Part shown: positions 46,402 to 56,300 of the stretch, piece after piece
Layout: each line of letters opens with the position of its first letter
Numbering within the stretch: the stretch's first letter is position 1
From: Gaiellales bacterium
GTDB lineage: Bacteria > Actinomycetota > Thermoleophilia > Gaiellales > JAICJC01
Reading direction: 5' to 3'
Length of the DNA: 64,000 bases
NCBI GenBank assembly: GCA_038212095.1
Contig: JBBQUW010000010.1
Span: 11,084-75,083, forward strand
Notes under the pieces: model-generated
The model's input: the letters and a program-made list of their open reading frames with translations, nothing else
What the model was told of the DNA's origin: nothing
The model's database searches: none
Made by a program: the position numbers and the translations under genes

Positions 46402-46879
46402 GCTTGGCGCGTACGCCGCCTGACACGGGAGCCCACAAACGGTCAGGAGCGGCACCTTCGACGATACGAGGCTCAGGGATCATGTCAACTCTCTCAACGT
46501 GCGGGATCCTGGAGTTGGGGTCGAGCGGGCGTTGGAGCGCATCGGGCCGAGCGCTGAGGACGTCGTGTTGTGGCGAAGTATGTGCCAGCCAGCTGTTGGT
46601 AAGGGCCGCGGTGTCGCCGGGCTGCCGCCGATGCGTCGCGGCTTGTACGGGCATAGCGAACTGCATCGACGTGCGCGCGCCGAAGTCGCGGGGCTCGATG
46701 CCCAAGCCGCCGGGTAGCGCGCCGCGCTCACCGGCACTCCCATGCCCATGGTGGTGCCCCAGATCACCCCGACCCCTACCCACTCGCGCGCTTAGCGTCG
46801 CCGAAGATCGGGGAGAGCTCTCTTGATCGTTTCTGGGCTGGCTGGTACAGTCGCAGCGTCTCGGAGGGGCGGTGCAGGC

Positions 46880-48007
46880 GTGAGATCCAGGTCGTGGACG
46901 GCTGGTCTTGGTGTGGGCTTGCTGTGCGCGATAGTGGTAGCGCCGACGGCTTCTGCATCGACGGACGTGGTGGCGAACGCGGGTTTCGAGACCGGGAACG
47001 TGACGGGGTGGATCGCATCGCCGGCACCGGGTGGGGCGGTCTCGGTCGTATCGAGCTTCGGGTATGCCGATGGTTGTGGCGATACCTTTCTAGGGCAGAC
47101 GTGGGCGCCGGTCGATGGGTCGAGCTTCGCGCTTCTCAACGCTGGGTCGGCGGCCGGCGGTAATTACACGATCCTCGACCAAGCGGTTCGCGTGACGGCG
47201 GGCTCGACGATCTCGGGACTCGCCTTCCTCTGTTCCAGCGAGACGTATGCCAACAACACTGCGCCATTCGATGATGACGCCGAGATCGCGATACGCAAGT
47301 CAGGAGTTGACACAGCAGTCGTCTACAGGGATCACGCTCGAGCCGAGTTGCCGTGCGGGTACACCGGATCAATTCCGATCCCAGGACAGACGGTGTGCAG
47401 CGGGCTAGGGAACCCGGCGTGGGCCCTGCAATGGTCGTACACCTTCCCCAGCACCGGGACGTATACGGTCGAAGCACGCGTCGAAAACGTCGGCGACGCG
47501 CTCTTACCGACGTGGCTGGGCGTGGACGCGGTGCGCCTGGTCTCGGCCCAGACGTTCGCGCCACTGTCAGGGATCACCGGTAGCACAGTGACGATTACCG
47601 GCACCGATCTTGGCGGCGCGACCGCGGTGGACTTCGCCGGCCTGGCCGCGCGCTTCATGGTGCTCTCCCCAACCCAGGTGCGCGTCACCGTTCCGGTCGG
47701 TGCCAGCAGTGGCCGGATCGCGGTGACAACGCCGGACGGCATAGCGACCTCCCAGTACGGCTACGCCGTCACCCTGTCGATCTGGACTCGCAGCCCTGCA
47801 AAGGCCGCTCCTGGATCATCGGTGACCTTGACCGGCGTCGGCTTCGCGAACGCGTCAGCCGTCGCATTCGCGGGTACACCGGCCCAGTTCACCATCCTCT
47901 CCGACGGCCGCATCAGCACCATCGTGCCCGCCGGCGCCACATCGGGCCCGATCACCGTCACGACACCGCTCGGCACCGTTCGCAGCAAGAAGTTCACCGT
48001 AGCCTGA
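46880..48007 (+). CDS. secreted protein: CBM-like N-terminal domain plus two IPT/TIG domains
   Basis: Start moved to GTG 46880 (signal VRSRSWTAGLGVGLLCAIVVAPTASAS). ANAGFETGNVTGW is a CBM4/9-type opening. Two repeats follow: GSTVTITGTDLGGATAVDFAG...RVTVPVGASSGRIAVTTPDG and GSSVTLTGVGFANASAVAFAG...STIVPAGATSGPITVTTPLG. Confidence 0.7.
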   Translation: MRSRSWTAGLGVGLLCAIVVAPTASASTDVVANAGFETGNVTGWIASPAPGGAVSVVSSFGYADGCGDTFLGQTWAPVDGSSFALLNAGSAAGGNYTILDQAVRVTAGSTISGLAFLCSSETYANNTAPFDDDAEIAIRKSGVDTAVVYRDHARAELPCGYTGSIPIPGQTVCSGLGNPAWALQWSYTFPSTGTYTVEARVENVGDALLPTWLGVDAVRLVSAQTFAPLSGITGSTVTITGTDLGGATAVDFAGLAARFMVLSPTQVRVTVPVGASSGRIAVTTPDGIATSQYGYAVTLSIWTRSPAKAAPGSSVTLTGVGFANASAVAFAGTPAQFTILSDGRISTIVPAGATSGPITVTTPLGTVRSKKFTVA

Positions 48008-48244: not shown

Positions 48245-48317
48245 TGGGCGGTACTGGGCTCGAACCAGTGACCCCCAGCTTGTCGAGCTGGTGCTCTCCC
48301 AACTGAGCTAACCGCCC
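48245..48317 (-). tRNA. tRNA-Val (anticodon GAC), no encoded CCA
   Basis: GGGCGGT-TA-GCTC-AGTTGGGA-GAGC-A-CCAGC-TCGACAA-GCTGG-GGGTC-ACTGG-TTCGAGC-CCAGT-ACCGCCC-A. All four arms pair perfectly. The anticodon loop reads U-C-G-A-C-A-A. Confidence 0.9.
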
Positions 48318-48374: not shown

Positions 48375-49940
48375 CTACGCGGCCAACCGCCGCGCCGCCT
48401 CGTCACTGGCGAAGATGGCACCGTCCAGATAGCACACCGCGCCCTGCTCGTCGCGGATCCCCCGCCCCTGCTCTCGCACCCAGCGCGTGCCGCCACCGGC
48501 CACGACGATCCGGTACTCGATGATGAACGGCCGGTCGGCCTCGACCGCCTCGGCCACGGTGCGCTCCACCATCGCCCGATCGTCGGGGTGGATCACGCTG
48601 GCGAAGCTGCGCACGCTGCTGTCGATGAACTCGGCGGCGGGGTACCCGGTGATGCCCTCGATCTGCTCGCTGATGAACTCCATCCGCCACTCGCTTGCGG
48701 CCGAGCAGCGGTAGATCGCGCCGGGCACGTTTTCGATCAGCGCCCGCAGCCGGTCTACGTCCCACTTGTCGTGGCGGCCGATGCCAAGGTGTTCGCGGCC
48801 GACCGCCATCACCCCGCTGACCTCGCCCTGCCCGTCGCGCAGCGGTACCACCTCGACGGTATAGGTGTGCTCCCCCGCCTCATGCACGAACTCGTGCGCC
48901 TGGCCCTCAAGGCCGGCTTGGTAGTGGCGGCGCAGCTCGTCCAGCTGCTCGGGCGCGACCACCTCGGCCAGCGTTCGGCCGATCATCTCCTGCGGATCGC
49001 GACCACCGCGGGCAAGCGCCGCACCCGAAGCCATCTCCAGGCGCAGCTCGCGGTCGAACACCAGGATCAGCGTCTCGGGCAGGCTGTCCAACAGCACACG
49101 GTTGCGCTCGGCAGCCTCGCGGTGCAGCCGTCCCACGATCTGCACCTCGACCTGCGACGCGGCGGCCGCGGCCAGGCTGGTCAGCATCCGCACGTCGCTC
49201 TGTGACCAGCGCCGCGGAGTCGTGTCGGCGACGCACAGGGTGCCAAAGGGCGCTCCGTCGCCGGAGATCAGCGGCAGCCCGACGTACGCCCGCAGACCAA
49301 ACTCGGTCACGGCCGGGTTGTCACGCACCAGCGGATCCTGGGCAGCGTCGAAGATCACGAGCGGCGCTGCGGCGGCCACGACGTGGCGGCAGATCGAGCG
49401 CCCCAGCGGCAGCTCGCGCCGCATCAGCGCGTCCGGCACGCCCACGCCGCTGGTGATCACCTCGGCGTGATCGTTGACCATCGAGACGAAGCTGATCGGC
49501 GCGTGTAGCAGCCATCCGGCCAGCGCGGTGAGGCGGTCGAGCCCCTCGTCGGTCTCGACCTCCCCCGGGCAACTGGAAGGCGGCAGAGCGTCAGCCGGCG
49601 CTGCGTCAGTATCGGCGGCGGCGGGCGACGGATCGCCGCCCTGCTTCCACTGCACCAGCCCCGAGAGCAGCGAGCCGACCACTCGCTGCGCCAGCGCCGG
49701 GTGCGGGAACGGCTTGTTCGCGTCGACCGAGTAGCGGTTGCGCCGCCCGATCCGCGTCCGCTGCACGTACCCCGCGGCGACCAGGTCGTTGACGATCGAC
49801 TGCACCGCCCGCTCGGTGATGCCCAGCCGCTGTGCGACCTCGCGCAGACGCACGTCCGGATCCTCGGCGATCGCGATCAGCGCCTGGCCGTGGTTGGTGA
49901 GCAGCACGAACGGCGCGGCGTGGGTAGATGCCTGACTCAT
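48375..49940 (-). CDS. transcriptional regulator: winged HTH (MarR/ArsR-like) + GAF + two PAS domains
   Basis: Trimmed to ATG 49940 (MSQASTHAAPFVLL...). HTH is VRLREVAQRLGITERAVQSIVNDLVAAGYVQRTRIGRRNRY. GAF-like segment is ...ICRHVVAAAAPLVIFDAAQDP...YVGLPL.... PAS blocks carry HPDD and EYRIV..GG.RWV. Confidence 0.8.
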   Translation of the reverse strand: MSQASTHAAPFVLLTNHGQALIAIAEDPDVRLREVAQRLGITERAVQSIVNDLVAAGYVQRTRIGRRNRYSVDANKPFPHPALAQRVVGSLLSGLVQWKQGGDPSPAAADTDAAPADALPPSSCPGEVETDEGLDRLTALAGWLLHAPISFVSMVNDHAEVITSGVGVPDALMRRELPLGRSICRHVVAAAAPLVIFDAAQDPLVRDNPAVTEFGLRAYVGLPLISGDGAPFGTLCVADTTPRRWSQSDVRMLTSLAAAAASQVEVQIVGRLHREAAERNRVLLDSLPETLILVFDRELRLEMASGAALARGGRDPQEMIGRTLAEVVAPEQLDELRRHYQAGLEGQAHEFVHEAGEHTYTVEVVPLRDGQGEVSGVMAVGREHLGIGRHDKWDVDRLRALIENVPGAIYRCSAASEWRMEFISEQIEGITGYPAAEFIDSSVRSFASVIHPDDRAMVERTVAEAVEADRPFIIEYRIVVAGGGTRWVREQGRGIRDEQGAVCYLDGAIFASDEAARRLAA

Positions 49941-50050
49941 GAAATGAAGATCACCTTTTTGGGGATGGTCGATCGGGAGCGTCCCGCACAGTATGTGTTG
50001 GACACCTGAACCCTTCTTCGGCATTTCAGGATCATCTTTCACTCCCCCTT

Positions 50051-50692
50051 TTGAAAGGAACGTCTTTGTTCGCTCCCCCCTCGCTCTCTGGCGCGTCTCG
50101 GAAGCTGCTGCTTTCGCTGGCCGCCGTTGGCTCCGCGGCCGCAATTGCCGGCCTCGGCACCTACGCAACGTTCACCAGCTCCACGTCCGTCAGCCAGTCG
50201 GTCGCATCCGGCACGGTCACGATCGCGCTCGGCTCGACCGGCGCGGCCACCAACCGGCTCAACATCGGCGCCTCCAACATCGCCGCCGGCGACACGATCC
50301 AGCGCAGCGTCGATCTGATCAACCAGGGCACGATCAACCTGTCCGCGGTGACGCTTACCACCAGCGCAACCACCAGCTCGCTGCTGAATACTGACACCAC
50401 CACCGGCCTGCAGATGGCGATCGACAGGTGCTCGGTGGCCTGGACCGAGAGCGGCACGGCGCCGGCCTATACCTACACCTGCTCCGGCACCACCTCAGTC
50501 GTGCTGGCGTCGACCCCGGTGGTCGGCAGCAACCTGGCGCTGTCCAACCTGGGCGCGCTGACGGCCGGCGTGACCGACCGACTGCGTGTCACGCTGACAC
50601 TGCCCAGCGGCGCCGCCAACGGGCTCCAGAGCCAGTCCTCGGTGATCCAGTACGCGTTCACCGGCACGCAGCGCACGGCCACGAACCAGTAG
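50051..50692 (+). CDS. TasA/camelysin-like exported protein with SipW-type signal peptide
   Basis: SRKLLLSLAAVGSAAAIAGLGTYATFTSSTSVSQSVASGTVTI followed by a Thr/Ser-rich beta-type body. TTG start at 50051 or 50066, no obvious SD. Confidence 0.7.
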   Translation: MKGTSLFAPPSLSGASRKLLLSLAAVGSAAAIAGLGTYATFTSSTSVSQSVASGTVTIALGSTGAATNRLNIGASNIAAGDTIQRSVDLINQGTINLSAVTLTTSATTSSLLNTDTTTGLQMAIDRCSVAWTESGTAPAYTYTCSGTTSVVLASTPVVGSNLALSNLGALTAGVTDRLRVTLTLPSGAANGLQSQSSVIQYAFTGTQRTATNQ

Positions 50693-50697
50693 TACCG

Positions 50698-51303
50698 GTG
50701 GCTGTGAGCGAACCGCTAAGGGGAAGGGAGGCGTCGCCGCTGGCGGCGCTTCCCCGCGGCGTTCCGGCACTGGCCGGGGCGCTGCGCACCTCCCTGAACT
50801 TCGCCGCCACGTTGCTGGCGGTGACCGCGGTGGCCGCCCTGGTGGCGGTCGAGGTGGGGCCACGGCTGGGCCTGTACCGCATCCAGACCGTGCTGTCGGG
50901 CAGCATGCAGCCGACCTTCGCGCCCGGCGACCTGATCGTGGTGACGCCTGAGAACACGTCCAGCGTCCGCACCGGACAGGTGATCAGCTACCAGATCCCG
51001 ACGGGCGATCACCATGTCGAGAGCCACCGTGTGATCAAGATCGGCCACGACGGTGGCCGGCCGACGGTGATCACCAAGGACGACGCGAACCCTGCCGCCG
51101 ATCCGTGGCGGGCCAGGCTGACGTCCGACACCGCTTGGCGTGAGCGGCTGGTGATCCCCAAGCTGGGATGGCTGATCATCTGGCTGCGCCAGCCCTTGCT
51201 GGGGCACCTGCTGGTGCTGGTCGTGCCGTTCCTGCTGGCGGTATGGTGGCTGGTGGGCATCTGGCGCCCAAGCTCGCCGCCGCAGCGGCAGACCGCGCGA
51301 TGA
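50698..51303 (+). CDS. signal peptidase I, SipW / archaeal-ER (S26B) type
   Basis: Start at GTG 50698. TM anchor, then the catalytic Ser box VLSGSMQPTFAPGDLIVV and later HRVIKI...TKDDANPAADP. A second C-terminal TM helix is typical of SipW. The stop overlaps the next start as ATGA. Confidence 0.85.
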   Translation: MAVSEPLRGREASPLAALPRGVPALAGALRTSLNFAATLLAVTAVAALVAVEVGPRLGLYRIQTVLSGSMQPTFAPGDLIVVTPENTSSVRTGQVISYQIPTGDHHVESHRVIKIGHDGGRPTVITKDDANPAADPWRARLTSDTAWRERLVIPKLGWLIIWLRQPLLGHLLVLVVPFLLAVWWLVGIWRPSSPPQRQTAR

Positions 51304-52187
51304 AGGGGCGCCGGCCGACGCTGGTGGGCGTGGCCCTGCTGACCGCGACCGCCGTCTCGGCCGTCGCAGCCAACTTCGCACAGGCCGCCTTCAGCTCGGC
51401 TGCCACGGCCAGCCAGAGCGTGTCCAGCCGCTCGCTGGGCGCCCCGTCCGCGCTGTCCGCCTCGGCCAGCGGGCACAACGTCGCCCTCTCCTGGTCGGCC
51501 GGCACCAACGGCAACGGCTACCAGCTGCTGACCGCTGCGAACGGCACCAACCCGGCCTGCGGCGCCGCCAGCTTCACCTCGCTCTCGACGACGGCCGCGC
51601 TCAGCGCCACCGATAGCGGCCGCTACCTGCCGCAGGGCAGCTACCAGTGCTACCAGGTGCGCACGACCTACAACACCTGGTGGAGCGTGAGCGGCAACCC
51701 GATCGCCGCCGTCCAGCTCGGCTTCGTCGCCGCCTCGGTCACGGTCACCAGCGGCGGCGTGGCCGGTGACCTCGACGCCGGCGACTCGATCGTCGTCACC
51801 TACAACCAGCCGGTCAACACCACCACCGGCCCGGTCGCCGCCGACAACATCTGCACCGACTCGATCAGCAACACGATCGTGCTGGGCAGCAACGGCTCCG
51901 GCACCACCTGTAACGCGACGCCCGCCTCGGTCGGCACGATCACCGGCATGACGGTGGCCAAGAAGGGCCGCTTCGCCGCAACCTGGTCGTGGAACGGCGC
52001 GCACACGGTGCTGACGATCACGCTCGGCGCCAAGTCGGCCGGTTTCTCGGGCGCCGTCTCTGGCAGCGGCACCTTCAACCCCACCACCACCGCCGGCGGC
52101 ATGCTCTCGGCCACCGGCGCGTTCCACAACTGCGACACAAACAGCGGCAGCGGCAACTGCCTGCCCGCCGTCAGCGCCGGCTTCTGA
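51300..52187 (+). CDS. exported protein with SipW-type signal and FN3-like domain
   Basis: Trimmed to ATG 51300. MKGRRPTLVGVALLTATAVSAVAANFAQAAFSSAATASQSVSS repeats the (A/T)F(T/S)S..(A/V)SQSV(A/S)S motif of the 50051 product. Followed by APSALSASASGHNVALSWSAGTNGNGYQL (FN3-like). Confidence 0.65.
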   Translation: MKGRRPTLVGVALLTATAVSAVAANFAQAAFSSAATASQSVSSRSLGAPSALSASASGHNVALSWSAGTNGNGYQLLTAANGTNPACGAASFTSLSTTAALSATDSGRYLPQGSYQCYQVRTTYNTWWSVSGNPIAAVQLGFVAASVTVTSGGVAGDLDAGDSIVVTYNQPVNTTTGPVAADNICTDSISNTIVLGSNGSGTTCNATPASVGTITGMTVAKKGRFAATWSWNGAHTVLTITLGAKSAGFSGAVSGSGTFNPTTTAGGMLSATGAFHNCDTNSGSGNCLPAVSAGF

Positions 52188-52245
52188 TCGCATCTCGGCG
52201 ATCCCCCATCAGAGGGACGCCGCAGACGCAACATGCCGCCACCAT

Positions 52246-53346
52246 GTGACAGCGCGTATACCCGACGCGCCCCGCTCCCGATCTGACGAGACGATCTGCA
52301 TGCACCCCAAGGTTCGTCGATACGCCACCACACCCGAACGCGGCCAGACCGTCGTTTTGGTCGCGGTGTTCATGATGAGCCTGATGGGCATGGCCACGTT
52401 CGCGATCGACATGGGCTCCTGGTACCAGTCCAAGCGGGCGGTGCAGGCCGCCGCCGACGCGGCCGCGCTTGCAGGGGCCAGCCGTCTGCCCGTCTCGAGC
52501 AGCGCCGCGACCACCGCGGCCAGCGCTGAGTACCAGAAGAACGGCCTGGGCTCGGACTCGGTCAGCTACCAGGTGACCACCAACCAGCACTCCAGCGACT
52601 CGCTCACGGTGACGGCCACCCGCGTCGTGCCGACCTGGTTCGCGAAGCTGTTCGGCTACAACTCGACCACCATCACGGCCACCTCACGCGCGACGGTGCA
52701 GTCGTTCCAGCAGGTTGTACCCAACCAGAACGTGATGCCGTGGGGCGTCCTGTAGGGCGCCTACACGCCCGGCCAATCATTCCCGATCTACACCAAGGAC
52801 ACCGCCAACGCCAACAACGGCGCGCTGTCGCCGCCGTACGTCAGCGGCGCCAGCTGCCCGACGCCGAACGGCGCGAATGACTACAAGAACGAGATCAGCG
52901 GCGTCGACAACGTCTGCCCGATCACGCTCGGCGAGTCTATCGACACCAAGCCCGGCAACAACTCCGGCCCAACGTCACAGGGACTGGTCGCCCGGATCGG
53001 CAACGGCGGCTGGGAGACGTTCAGCCAGGTCGTCACGCTGAACGCCGACGGCAGCTACTCGATCAAGGATGCGGCCAGCAAGCAGCTCGTCCTGGTGCCC
53101 GTCGTCGTCAACCAGAACGGGTCGAGCACGTGGCCGAACGGCACCAGCACACCGATGACGGTGGTCGGTTTCGCCTGGTTTGTGATCACCAGCTGCGGCA
53201 CCTCGCCGGTCAGCTACTGCGCGGCGTCCGACGGCAGCCAGGTCAACGGCACCTTCGTTGGGCTCGATACCACCAACAGCACCGGCACCACCGGTGCCTG
53301 GACCGGTTCGGCCGCCGACGCCTACGCCGTCGCCCTGACCAGCTAG
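52246..53346 (+). pseudogene. TadE/TadG-like pseudopilin-family protein interrupted by an in-frame TAG at 52753-52755
   Basis: N-terminus (likely ATG 52300) MHPKVRRYATTPERGQTVVLVAVFMMSLMGMATFAIDMGSWYQSKRAVQAAADAAALAGA is the Tad (PF13400-type) pattern. After ...NVMPWGVL-TAG the same frame stays open with GC-rich third positions for 113 codons that contain no ATG, GTG or TTG, and continues to TAG 53346. Confidence 0.65.
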
Positions 53347-56300
53347 GCGTCCACCGCCACCGGCTGCTCCCCGGCCGGCTCGGCCGGTAGCGGCTCGGCC
53401 GGCAGCGTCAGCTGGAAGCGCGCGCCCTGGCCGGGCGCGGAGTCGACCATCAGCTCGCCGCCGGCCAGCCGGATCCGCTCGACGGTGGCGTCCAGGCCGA
53501 CGTGCATCTCCATCCGCTTGCGGTCGAGCGCGACGGCGGGGTCAAAGCCGGCGCCGTCGTCGGCCACGTCGAACACCAGCAGCCCGTCTTGCTGGCGGCC
53601 GGTGATCTCGATCCGCGTCGCGTTGCTGTGCTTGCGGGCGTTGATGATCAGCTCACGCACCGCCCGGTAAACGATCGCCTCAACCGTCACCGATTGTCGC
53701 GGCAGCTCGATCGCGACCACCGCCTCACTCCAAGGCCCTTCCCCGGCGATGCGAGACAGCGCCGCGCCCAGCCCCTCCCGCTCCAGGATCTGCGGCCGCA
53801 GCTCGAACATCAGCCGCCGCGTGCGGTCGAGCGCTTCAGCCACCATGGTAGCGGTCGGCGCGAGGCTGGGATCCTTGCGCATCAGCATGTGCACCTGCAT
53901 CAGCAGCGCCGCCATCACCTGCACCGTGTCGTCGTGCAGCTCGACGGCGATCCGCGCCTGCTCGGCCTCGGCGGCGGTCACCAACGCGGCCATCACGTCG
54001 CGGCTGCGCCGCTCAGCGCGGCGCAGGTCTGTCAGGTCGACGATCACGCCCTGGGTGTGGGTGACGACGCCGCTTTGGTCGCGGAGGGCGCGGGCGACCA
54101 GCTGCACCTCGCGGACGTCGCCGGTGGCGGTGATCATGCGTGCCGAGTGGTCGACCGAGTCGACGGCACCGCTCACCAGATCCCGCAGCGTCTGCGCCAG
54201 CCGATCGTGGTCGTCGGGGTGGTACGTCTCGCGCAGCCGCGGCTCGATCTGCTCGTACTGGCGCAGGTACTGCTGCGGCGGAATTCCTAGCAGCCGCTCG
54301 ACCTGCGAGCTGATGTAGATCATGCGCCCGTCGGCGTCGGTCAGGTACGTCGTCACCGGCGTCTGCTCGACCAGCGCCGAGTAGCGCCGTTCGCTGGCCT
54401 CCAGCTCGGCTCGCGCCGCCACCTCGTCGGTGACGTCGATCATGACGCCCTGCACCTGCACCGAGCCGGCGTCGTCCTTGAGCGCGCGCGCGATCATCCG
54501 CACGTGCCGGTGCGATCCGTCGGCGTGGAACATGCGCGCCTCAAAGCTGTGGCCATCGATGCGGCCCTCGCGCAGGGCGATGGTGTCATCCATCAGCCGC
54601 TCGACGTCGTCCGGGTGGAACCACTCCACCTGCCGCTCCAGCGAGCTGCCGTCGGCCACCAGCCACTCGGGCGTGCGCCCCAGGATCTGCTCGGCCTGCG
54701 GGCTGGCGTAGGTGAGTGCGCCGTCCTGGCCGATGATGTACGTGGCCACCGGCAGCTGCTCGACCAGCGTCTGGTAGCGCCGCCGCTGCTCGGCCAGCCC
54801 GAGCGCTGCCTCCATCTCGGCCGTGACGTCGAACAGCAGCGCGATGTACTCGCTGTCTGAGCCGGGCCGCGGGCTGGTGGTCTCGCGGATCCAGATCGTG
54901 CGACCATCGCTGCGCGTCCAGCGGTACACGCCCGGCGCGGGATCGTCGGCCGGGCGCCAGCGGGTGGCATCGGCCAGTCGTCGGGGTGCACGCGCGACCG
55001 GAAGCGGGCGACCGCCTCGCCGCCCAGCCACACCTCGCGCGGCTCGCCGGTCAGCTGCTCGATCTGGGGTGATGCGAACACCGCCCACTCGGTGTCGCGG
55101 TCCCAGATCGTGCTGGTAGCCGGCATCCGGTTGATCAGGTCCTCGTAGCGCCGCTCGGCGAGCACCCGATCGTGGATGTCCATGATGATCGCGTGGCGCC
55201 AGCGCGGAACGCCGTGCTCGTCCGGCACGGTGGTGGCCTGCTCCTGCATCCAGCGGTAGCTGCCGTCGCGGCACCGCACGCGGTAGCTGGCGGTGAACTC
55301 ACCCGAGGTGGTGCGGCCGTCCACGATGCCGCTGGCACGGATCCGCTCGGGCAGGTCGTCGGGATGGATCTTCTCGTGCCACCACTCGGCGCTGTGGCCG
55401 CCCGCCATCCACTCGTCGACGGTGTAGCCGAGCATCGACTCGATCTGGGGGCTGACGAACAGCGGCTGCCCGGTCTGGGTGTCGTCGCGGTAGACGATCA
55501 GCGGCAGCTGTTCGACCAGGTGGCGGTAGATGGTGCTGGTCTCTGACAGCTCCTGGGCGGTGGCGACGGCGTCGCTGACGTCGAACGCGACGCCCATCCA
55601 GAGGTGGTCTGAGCCCTGGATCGGCCGCTCGGCGCCAGCCACCCAGATCTCGCGGTCGTCGCCGCACGTCCAGCGGTAGCGCTCCGCCCACGGCGTGCCT
55701 GTCGCCATCGAGCGGTGCCAGGCCGAGGTCACCCGCTCGCGATCGTCCTCGTGCACGCGCGACACCCAATCGAAGCTCTCGCTCTCGACCTGTTCGCGGC
55801 TGAGGCCGTACATCTCGAGGTACTGAGGGCTGACGTAGGTGCGCCGCTTCAGGCGGGCGTCGTAGACGTGGGTGGCGGCCGGGATCTGCTCGATCAGCGT
55901 CTGGTGCTCGGCGGTGCGCGTCCGCAACCGGCGGCGGGCACGGCGGCGGTCGGCCAGCATCGCCACCACCAGCAGGGCCGCCAGGCCGTCCAGCGTCAGC
56001 ACGACGATCAGCGCACCCCGCTCGATCCGGTTCAGCGAGTCGAGCGCGGCGATCCGCTCAGCGCTGGTGTCGGCCACCAACCGGCTCGACGTCTGCGCCA
56101 TCTGGTGGTAAATCGCCGTCTCGGGCGCGATCGCCAGCTGCACCGCGGCAGCGTGGTCACCCCGCTGGATGGCCGCGAACACCTGCACATCCAGCGCCCG
56201 GAACCGGGTCGTATCGCGGGTCAGGGCGCGCAGTAGCGTCCTGTCAGCGGCCGACGAGTCGGCCAGCCGTGCCGCCGCCAGGCCGAGCTGGACCGCCGCT

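Follow-up and report, generated by a model that had tools for sequence, protein, structure and literature searches.

A candidate three-gene TasA/SipW fibre operon in Gaiellales and its conserved accessory protein with a TasA-like N-terminal segment

A 64-kb stretch of DNA from a Gaiellales bacterium (contig JBBQUW010000010.1; hereafter the window, to which all coordinates refer) carries three adjacent genes at 50066–52187, which we designate g1, g2 and g3 in the order of the plus strand. We propose, with a probability of roughly 70%, that they form a TasA/SipW donor-strand fibre operon. In this operon, g1 would be the TasA-family fibre subunit, g2 its dedicated SipW-like signal peptidase and g3 an exported accessory protein with a TapA- or AbpB-like role as initiator, anchor or tip. 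A fourth gene, the TadG-like g4 (52246–53346), follows on the same strand and is discussed after the cassette itself. The features of the locus are as follows.

48375–49940, minus strand: divergent regulator with a MarR-type helix-turn-helix (HTH), GAF, PAS_4 and PAS_3 domains (Pfam)
49941–50065, no strand: control region and g1 leader, with conserved blocks and a Shine-Dalgarno sequence
50066–50692, plus strand: g1, TasA/camelysin-family secreted protein, putative major fibre subunit (PF12389; deposited record)
50165–50224, plus strand: N-terminal module of g1, ATFTSSTSVSQSVASGTVTI (sequence comparison, shuffle test)
50704–51303, plus strand: g2, SipW-like signal peptidase I (TIGR02228; deposited record)
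51300–52187, plus strand: g3, exported accessory protein of 295 amino acids (aa) from an unmodelled family (synteny, AlphaFold2 (AF2), Foldseek)
51384–51443, plus strand: N-terminal module of g3, AAFSSAATASQSVSSRSLGA, counterpart of the g1 module
52300–53346, plus strand: g4, TadG-like (PF13400), interrupted and outside the system (in-frame TAG at 52753–52755)

The open reading frames (ORFs) of the three cassette genes run co-directionally on the plus strand at 50051–50692, 50698–51303 and 51300–52187, as described in an earlier note on this DNA. The end of g2 and the start of g3 share the ATGA at 51300–51303, an overlap that had also been recognised there. The ORFs beginning at 50051 and 50698 are real, yet the true starts probably lie slightly further downstream. 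The invariant GAAAGGA ahead of TTG 50066, together with the deposited contig record, which calls g1 as 208 aa from TTG 50066 and g2 as 199 aa from GTG 50704, makes 50066 and 50704 the likelier starts, with the upstream TTG 50051 and GTG 50698 as alternatives.

A hidden Markov model (HMM) search placed g1 in the TasA/camelysin family, in agreement with the earlier assignment. The protein matches Pfam PF12389 (Peptidase_M73) with 42.3 bits against a gathering cut-off of 22.5 (E 1e-10), covering profile positions 7–192 of 196, and the NCBIfam TasA equivalog is matched weakly. We retrieved 3917 homologues of g1, for which NCBI uses the name ‘TasA family protein [Gaiellales bacterium]’, and its cysteines C127 and C144 are invariant among relatives.

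The product of g2 scores 68.0 bits against TIGR02228, the archaeal/endoplasmic reticulum (ER)-type signal peptidase I model with a cut-off of 51.85, and 20.2 bits against the bacterial-type model TIGR02227, whose cut-off is 47. It aligns with human SEC11A/SEC11C across the Ser motif SGSM and the His motif HRV (E 1e-7) and has hydrophobic segments at both termini. Judged by these sequence motifs, g2 is an ER/archaeal-type Ser-His, rather than Ser-Lys, signal peptidase I (MEROPS S26B), which bears out its original classification as an S26B SipW-type enzyme. Its score of 60.2 bits against NF046067, the Bacillus SipW equivalog, stays below the cut-off of 190; thus, g2 is SipW-like in type and context and not an orthologue by that model. 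The context consists of g1 and g3 on either side in the window, and of TasA-type neighbours and a g3 homologue beside the peptidase in related loci.

The third protein, g3, belongs to a family that is sizeable and lacks a model. Together with 28 relatives it gave no meaningful match to Pfam or NCBIfam, including the TapA/YqxM models, and g3 itself gave no match to Pfam fn3. A word-indexed search returned 44 clusters, all of them ‘hypothetical’, and NCBI names the orthologues ‘hypothetical protein’ as well. When representatives clustered at 50% identity were searched with a full HMM, the family grew to 902 members at E<=1e-3, of which 336 remained at E<=1e-10 and 109 at E<=1e-30; most are 290–350 aa long. 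The AF2 model of g3 (predicted local distance difference test (pLDDT) 86.2, predicted template modelling (TM) score 0.79) consists of two β-sandwich domains preceded by a low-confidence tail formed by residues 1–45. Foldseek found 42 matches to this model in the PDB at E<=1e-3, and those listed are mostly tandem FN3 pairs, the best with an E value of 2.9e-5 and a probability of 1.0. The TM scores are low (0.22–0.29), so the likeness to FN3 is a statement about fold class only, and at this level the FN3-like domain that had been assigned to g3 is borne out. Six cysteines of g3 are invariant and its C-terminus (...TGSF) is conserved; the invariant Cys pairs of g1 and g3 are consistent with extracellular proteins. 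We also considered that g3 could be a divergent TasA paralogue, which is ruled out by its two FN3/immunoglobulin (Ig)-like sandwiches, by the lack of an M73 match and by the fact that only the N-terminal module is held in common.

One member of the family departs from the usual length. The Chloroflexia homologue (locus L016, 5983–7791) has 602 aa and contains a repetitive insert of ~300 aa within the second β-sandwich domain, with repeats of the type ...GNxxDNRxITGxGFQP.... This suggests that the accessory protein gains extra, possibly adhesive, modules in some lineages.

In g3, a signal peptide is followed by a segment that resembles the N-terminal strand of TasA. The two modules, ATFTSSTSVSQSVASGTVTI (g1 residues 39–58) and AAFSSAATASQSVSSRSLGA (g3 residues 29–48), align with a score of 39, compared to 22.6 ± 4.0 for 2000 composition-preserving shuffles, none of which reached 39 (0/2000). 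The string common to both proteins, which was already pointed out in the earlier note, is hence real by this test. The g1 module also aligns without gaps to AAFNDIKSKDATFASGTLDL of B. subtilis TasA (TasA residues 28–47). SipW cleavage is predicted after GLGTYA in g1 and after NFAQA in g3. Because the alignment with TasA puts the cut after GLGTYA, most of the g1 module would remain in the mature protein.

This position bears on the view that the shared string marks a private signal-peptide/peptidase pair. The part of that view which invokes a dedicated SipW-type peptidase with matching N-termini agrees with the HMM matches, the synteny and the co-variation of the modules. As the module lies mostly past the predicted cleavage site, however, we consider that the string is probably more than a signal peptide and, as far as alignment can tell, corresponds to the donor-strand segment of TasA and TapA. 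In Bacillus, TasA fibres form as the N-terminal strand of one subunit enters the next (PMC9674648). TapA, in which a complete Ig fold follows an N-terminus homologous to that of TasA, initiates these filaments by strand donation (PMC10151520).

The modules of g1 and g3 change together between lineages. Gaiellales proteins show ...SQSV(A/S)S... in both g1 and g3, Thermoflexales ...GDNVFTS... in g1 and ...GNNFFAT... in g3, and Acidimicrobiales ...SNTFST... and ...SNTFTT..., respectively. Pairwise module scores follow the same division. Gaiellales g1 modules reach 28–46 against Gaiellales g3 and 16–24 against other lineages; Chloroflexota g1 modules reach 25–44 against non-Gaiellales g3 and 13–23 against Gaiellales g3; and TasA scores 31 against TapA and 14–21 against other g3-type proteins. 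Module length, 20 or 21 residues, likewise co-varies between g1 and g3. A module of the type G-T-x-A-x-F ... N-x-x-N-x-F ... L-x-A-P recurs across 87 full-length representatives of the g3 family.

To place the cassette in a wider context, we compared the window with related loci, numbered L001–L022. Those carrying a g3 homologue number 17, the window excluded (L001–L005, JGI sample 3300075153, the L009–L019 range, L021 and L022); L006–L008 were retrieved through homologues of g4 and not of g3. The set includes Gaiellales/Thermoleophilia metagenome-assembled genomes (MAGs; L002, L005 and L009–L011), an Acidimicrobiales MAG (L012), a Thermoflexales locus (L013) and a Chloroflexia locus (L016). 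The order g1-g2-g3 is present in every related locus with enough DNA, namely L001, L002, L005, L009–L011 and L017–L019 (Gaiellales/Thermoleophilia), L012, the Chloroflexota loci L013 and L016, and the distantly related L021 and L022. With tblastn of the window proteins, the full arrangement regulator-g1-g2-g3 was found in L002, L005, L009, L010 and L011, and g1-g2-g3 without the regulator in L001 and L012; gene calls gave the former in L017 and L018 and the latter in L019. In L013, the g3 homologue is preceded by a SipW-like gene and a TasA-like gene (PF12389, 36.6 bits), and in L016 by two TasA-like genes and a SipW-like gene. The g3 homologues of L021 and L022 (46–49% identity over the BLAST-aligned regions) come immediately after peptidase genes whose products match TIGR02228 (70.6 and 86.3 bits). 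Weak M73 matches occur nearby in both loci; in L022 they precede the peptidase gene, and in L021 they follow it as part of a second module.

Of the loci other than the window, 17 have upstream DNA available, and in each of them a SipW-type gene directly precedes the g3 homologue. The g2/g3 overlap recurs in most of these loci and measures 4 nucleotides (nt) in L001, L002, L003 and L017 and 1 nt in L019. The neighbourhood comparison that had been suggested as a test of the cassette therefore finds g1-g2-g3 kept in Gaiellales/Thermoleophilia, Acidimicrobiales and Chloroflexota.

The second module of L021 (2911–6399) comprises two to three TasA-like genes and a second SipW-type peptidase (TIGR02228, 86.9 bits). 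It ends with a 364-aa protein bearing the SipW-dependent signal TIGR04088 (22.3 bits, above cut-off). The succession of TasA-like genes, SipW and an accessory protein with a cognate signal thus appears to be a repeated design.

The divergent gene at 48375–49940 encodes a protein in which the Pfam models for MarR-HTH, GAF, PAS_4 and PAS_3 all score above their cut-offs, so that the HTH-GAF-PAS regulator previously proposed here is present, with a MarR-type HTH, a GAF and two PAS domains. Orthologues with 58–62% identity occupy the same divergent position in L002, L005, L009, L010 and L011, and Pfam detects a divergent MarR/GAF/PAS gene in L017 and L018. Most Gaiellales loci have the regulator, but it is missing from the L001/L019 lineage and from the loci outside Gaiellales. 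We regard this MarR-GAF-PAS protein as the probable sensor-regulator of the cassette.

GC content reaches its local minimum (0.597) in the spacer between the regulator and g1, as expected from the earlier description of this spacer as an AT-rich control region. The spacer contains the Shine-Dalgarno sequence GAAAGGA at 50053–50059, 6 nt ahead of TTG 50066, which is invariant in a 7-locus spacer alignment, as are TCGGCA, TCATC.TT and CCCCC. Across Gaiellales loci whose spacers otherwise diverge, the invariant blocks are GG.TGG, CCTGAA, TCGGCA, TCATC.TT, CCCCC and GAAAGGA, any of which could act as an operator or promoter element for the MarR-GAF-PAS regulator. No match to the sigma-70 consensus was found in the control region, and scans of this region and the g3–g4 spacer for promoters, terminators and inverted repeats returned nothing above shuffle expectation.

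Bacillus SipW processes both TasA and TapA. For the Gaiellales cassette we infer that membrane-anchored g2 removes the signal peptide from g1 as well as from g3 at the sites given above and that this would free homologous N-terminal segments of ~18 residues on the two proteins. Outside the cell, g1 would polymerise with the N-terminal strand of each subunit entering the next, comparable to Bacillus TasA and archaeal AbpA. As g3 contains complete FN3/Ig-like domains, it cannot be an internal fibre subunit; it would complement the first g1 subunit with its own matching N-terminal strand, whereby the fibre would be initiated, anchored or capped in a TapA-like manner, and its β-sandwich domains could serve as anchor or adhesin. 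The MarR-GAF-PAS regulator would tie expression of the cassette to a signal. We favour g1 as subunit, g2 as peptidase and g3 as strand donor since this anatomy matches the Bacillus TasA/SipW/TapA scheme point for point. The N-terminal module, the fold and the synteny support the notion that g3 works like TapA, and membership of the TapA family is not implied. A more far-reaching proposal is that g3 represents a large initiator or tip family, without a Pfam or NCBIfam model, in which the donor strand evolves in concert with the strand of the adjacent TasA-like subunit; we hold this tentatively, at slightly under even odds.

The main rival to a donor-strand role is that the dedicated peptidase simply handles g3 as an additional cargo, for instance a free adhesin, a matrix protein or a cell-wall-associated protein, that the shared motif serves substrate recognition or export only, and that g3 does not take part in building the fibre. 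We consider this unlikely, though it has evidence on its side. The shared motif takes in the predicted cleavage region, the domains of g3 are generic FN3/Ig-like folds, and SipW-type peptidases have several unrelated substrates with TIGR04088 signals, as may be the case for the 364-aa protein behind the second SipW of L021. Signal peptidase I recognition follows the −3/−1 rule. The similarity and co-variation of g1 and g3, in contrast, run ~18 residues past the predicted cleavage site, beyond what signal peptidase I usually needs, and g3 is strictly one-to-one adjacent to, and translationally coupled with, the peptidase gene. Moreover, TasA and TapA use the corresponding segment as their donor strand (PMC10151520). 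A different explanation takes g1 as a camelysin-type secreted metalloprotease (Peptidase_M73) and g3 as its substrate or partner, with no fibre at all. It is suggested by the Pfam name and by camelysin activity that was once reported from B. cereus (cited in PMC9245690). However, the protease assignment of CalY is held to be a likely misidentification (PMC11580942) and the structurally studied members TasA and AbpA are fibre subunits (PMC9674648, PMC9245690), which leaves this explanation very improbable; a metal-binding protease motif was not seen either, although no search aimed at one was made.

Several observations count against a donor-strand fibre operon. The match of g1 to TIGR04088 (residues 23–56) reaches 16.6 bits and falls under the cut-off of 19, and g3 does not match this model. 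The AF2 model of g1 is poor (pLDDT 47.2, from a shallow alignment), so that a jelly-roll fold is unconfirmed, and a profile search with g1 found nothing among PDB sequences. The co-variation of the modules would be equally expected from mere recognition by a co-evolving peptidase. As there are few independent lineages (~4), it is given here as a description and not as a statistical test. All sequences of this clade come from MAGs or metagenomes. Finally, the SipW-like gene of L005 (6414–6980) is apparently disrupted, with a 100-aa call and homology continuing in another frame, a pattern that points to a frameshift or sequencing error in the L005 assembly.

The earlier note had counted a fourth gene, a TadE/TadG-like protein at 52246–53346, as part of a surface-fibre system in which a Tad-type pseudopilin would work together with the TasA and SipW genes. 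Several facts speak in favour of this idea. g4 is co-directional and begins 113 nt past g3, the g3–g4 spacer contains no convincing terminator, and the Tad domain itself is genuine, the N-terminal 169-aa fragment matching PF13400 with 45.6 bits (cut-off 22.3). In Clostridium perfringens, type IV pilus genes have been reported to be functionally linked to secretion of TasA-like matrix proteins (PMC11580942). The single intact ORF, however, does not exist: the translation of 52246–53346 is broken by an in-frame TAG at 52753–52755, and the deposited record contains only a 151-aa N-terminal stub (52300–52755). The g4 family has at least 589 homologues, the closest of which run for ~320–360 aa without interruption; the best 120 listed are ~260–365 aa long. 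At the column of the stop codon, which lies within the conserved block MPWGVL(Q/K)G, the 40 uninterrupted homologues that were aligned carry Q in 22 cases, K in 16 and R in 2. The simplest reading of this alignment is a CAG>TAG nonsense change, and g4 would then be either a pseudogene or the product of a sequence error. Read-through or recoding of the TAG is less likely, as the codon aligns to Q/K/R and nothing points to recoding.

The genomic context of g4 homologues also separates them from the cassette. A TadG-like gene downstream of the cassette was found in none of 17 related loci (downstream ORFs of L001 and L002 compared by direct BLAST; tblastn of g4 against L001–L016), and the tblastn search gave matches only in L006–L008. 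The best homologue (68% identity, L006) is located inside a canonical flp-tadE-tadG-rcpC-cpaE-cpaF-tadB-tadC locus, whereas the other two (L007 and L008) are orphans in unrelated contexts. We found no g1, g2, g3 or regulator in the flanks of 43 metagenome loci with g4 homologues (L023–L065), and no g1, g2 or g3 near 3 looked-up g4-homologue loci. Overall, ~60 related loci offer no case of a TadG-like gene linked to the cassette. Within the 64-kb window, tblastn with nine proteins of the L006 tad locus finds the TadG-like gene and no other tad gene. The nonsense codon, the lack of synteny and the placement of the closest homologue in a canonical tad locus largely refute the Tad pseudopilin as part of the system, and a four-gene surface-fibre system is accordingly very improbable. 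g4 is an unrelated, apparently inactivated orphan paralogue, and the Tad linkage is an incidental adjacency.

As a family, the TadG-like proteins are mostly encoded by orphan genes, with a tad gene in the flanks of 0/43 metagenome loci and L006 as the sole exception. Their conserved C-terminal ~200 aa correspond to no Pfam domain.

Further lesions lie close by. The convergent ‘~1085-aa multi-PAS kinase’ of the original description is not one ORF. The histidine kinase is split into three minus-strand pieces in three frames (56595–56221, 56188–54593 and 55274–53343), and two frameshifts, near 56200 and 54975, are therefore needed to join them, the latter right after an HPDD motif. Together with the TAG in g4, this makes three lesions within 4 kb, which reflect either local gene decay or assembly errors. 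On the other side of the cassette, the plus strand at 46823–48007 encodes a secreted protein of 394 aa that combines IPT/TIG domains with ‘choice-of-anchor Z’ repeats (NF058597, 40.5 bits). This further surface protein near the cassette is encoded upstream of a tRNA-Val gene (48245–48317) and the regulator.

The overall organisation of g1-g2-g3 is reminiscent of B. subtilis tapA-sipW-tasA. In both, one operon provides the TasA-family subunit, its dedicated ER-type peptidase and an accessory protein. The accessory gene lies beside sipW in either case, and in its product a complete Ig-like domain comes after an N-terminus that is homologous to the one of the major subunit. When comparing the two, there are also clear differences. 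Whereas the Bacillus order is tapA-sipW-tasA, the order here is tasA-sipW-accessory. g3 has 295 aa and two FN3-like domains and shows no sequence match to TapA models. The regulator is a MarR-GAF-PAS protein rather than SinR/SlrR, and the hosts are Thermoleophilia and Chloroflexota.

In the archaeon Pyrobaculum calidifontis, the gene for AbpA, a TasA-like donor-strand pilin, likewise adjoins that for a multi-β-domain accessory protein, AbpB, for which an initiating role similar to that of TapA has been proposed, as supplier of the first complementing strand and as adhesin (PMC9245690). The archaeal loci differ in having no dedicated peptidase, and AbpB comprises three domains, its relation to TapA being confined to the fold level. 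The sipW-bsaA-bsaB-bsaC operon of C. perfringens also encodes a SipW, subunits of the TasA superfamily and an exported accessory protein (PMC11580942). There, however, isopeptide bonds lock the BsaA subunits, and BsaC, a vWA protein, needs a type IV pilin for its secretion, whereas no functional pilus link was found at the window cassette. With the Tad/Flp minor pseudopilins (TadE/TadF/TadG; PF13400, PF07811), the locus shares only the PF13400 match in the N-terminal region of g4, a gene that is isolated from tad genes and cut by a stop codon; most sampled members of its family are orphans too.

Our literature search on TasA in Gaiellales, Actinomycetota and Chloroflexota found no study of the loci of this clade. 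Surveys of the TasA superfamily have nevertheless assigned Actinomycetota sequences to the central TasA cluster before (bioRxiv 10.64898/2026.01.04.697558) and have listed signal peptidases and fibronectin-domain proteins as common neighbours (PMC11580942), and the novelty at first claimed for the high-GC Gram-positive version was thus overstated. The fresh element is the g3 accessory family without a family model, along with its co-varying strand, and nothing else.

Gaiellales and related Thermoleophilia are abundant in soil and almost never cultured, and the cassette provides a conserved, regulated candidate for their matrix or attachment fibres. It would be reasonable to build a family model for g3 and its relatives. 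The paired, co-varying strands of g1 and g3 allow one to ask whether the TapA-style initiation of Bacillus is general. If g3 is indeed a strand-donating initiator or tip, its FN3-like domains would form an adhesive or anchoring fibre end, and initiation of the TapA type would be general across Thermoleophilia, Acidimicrobiia and Chloroflexota rather than a peculiarity of Bacillus.

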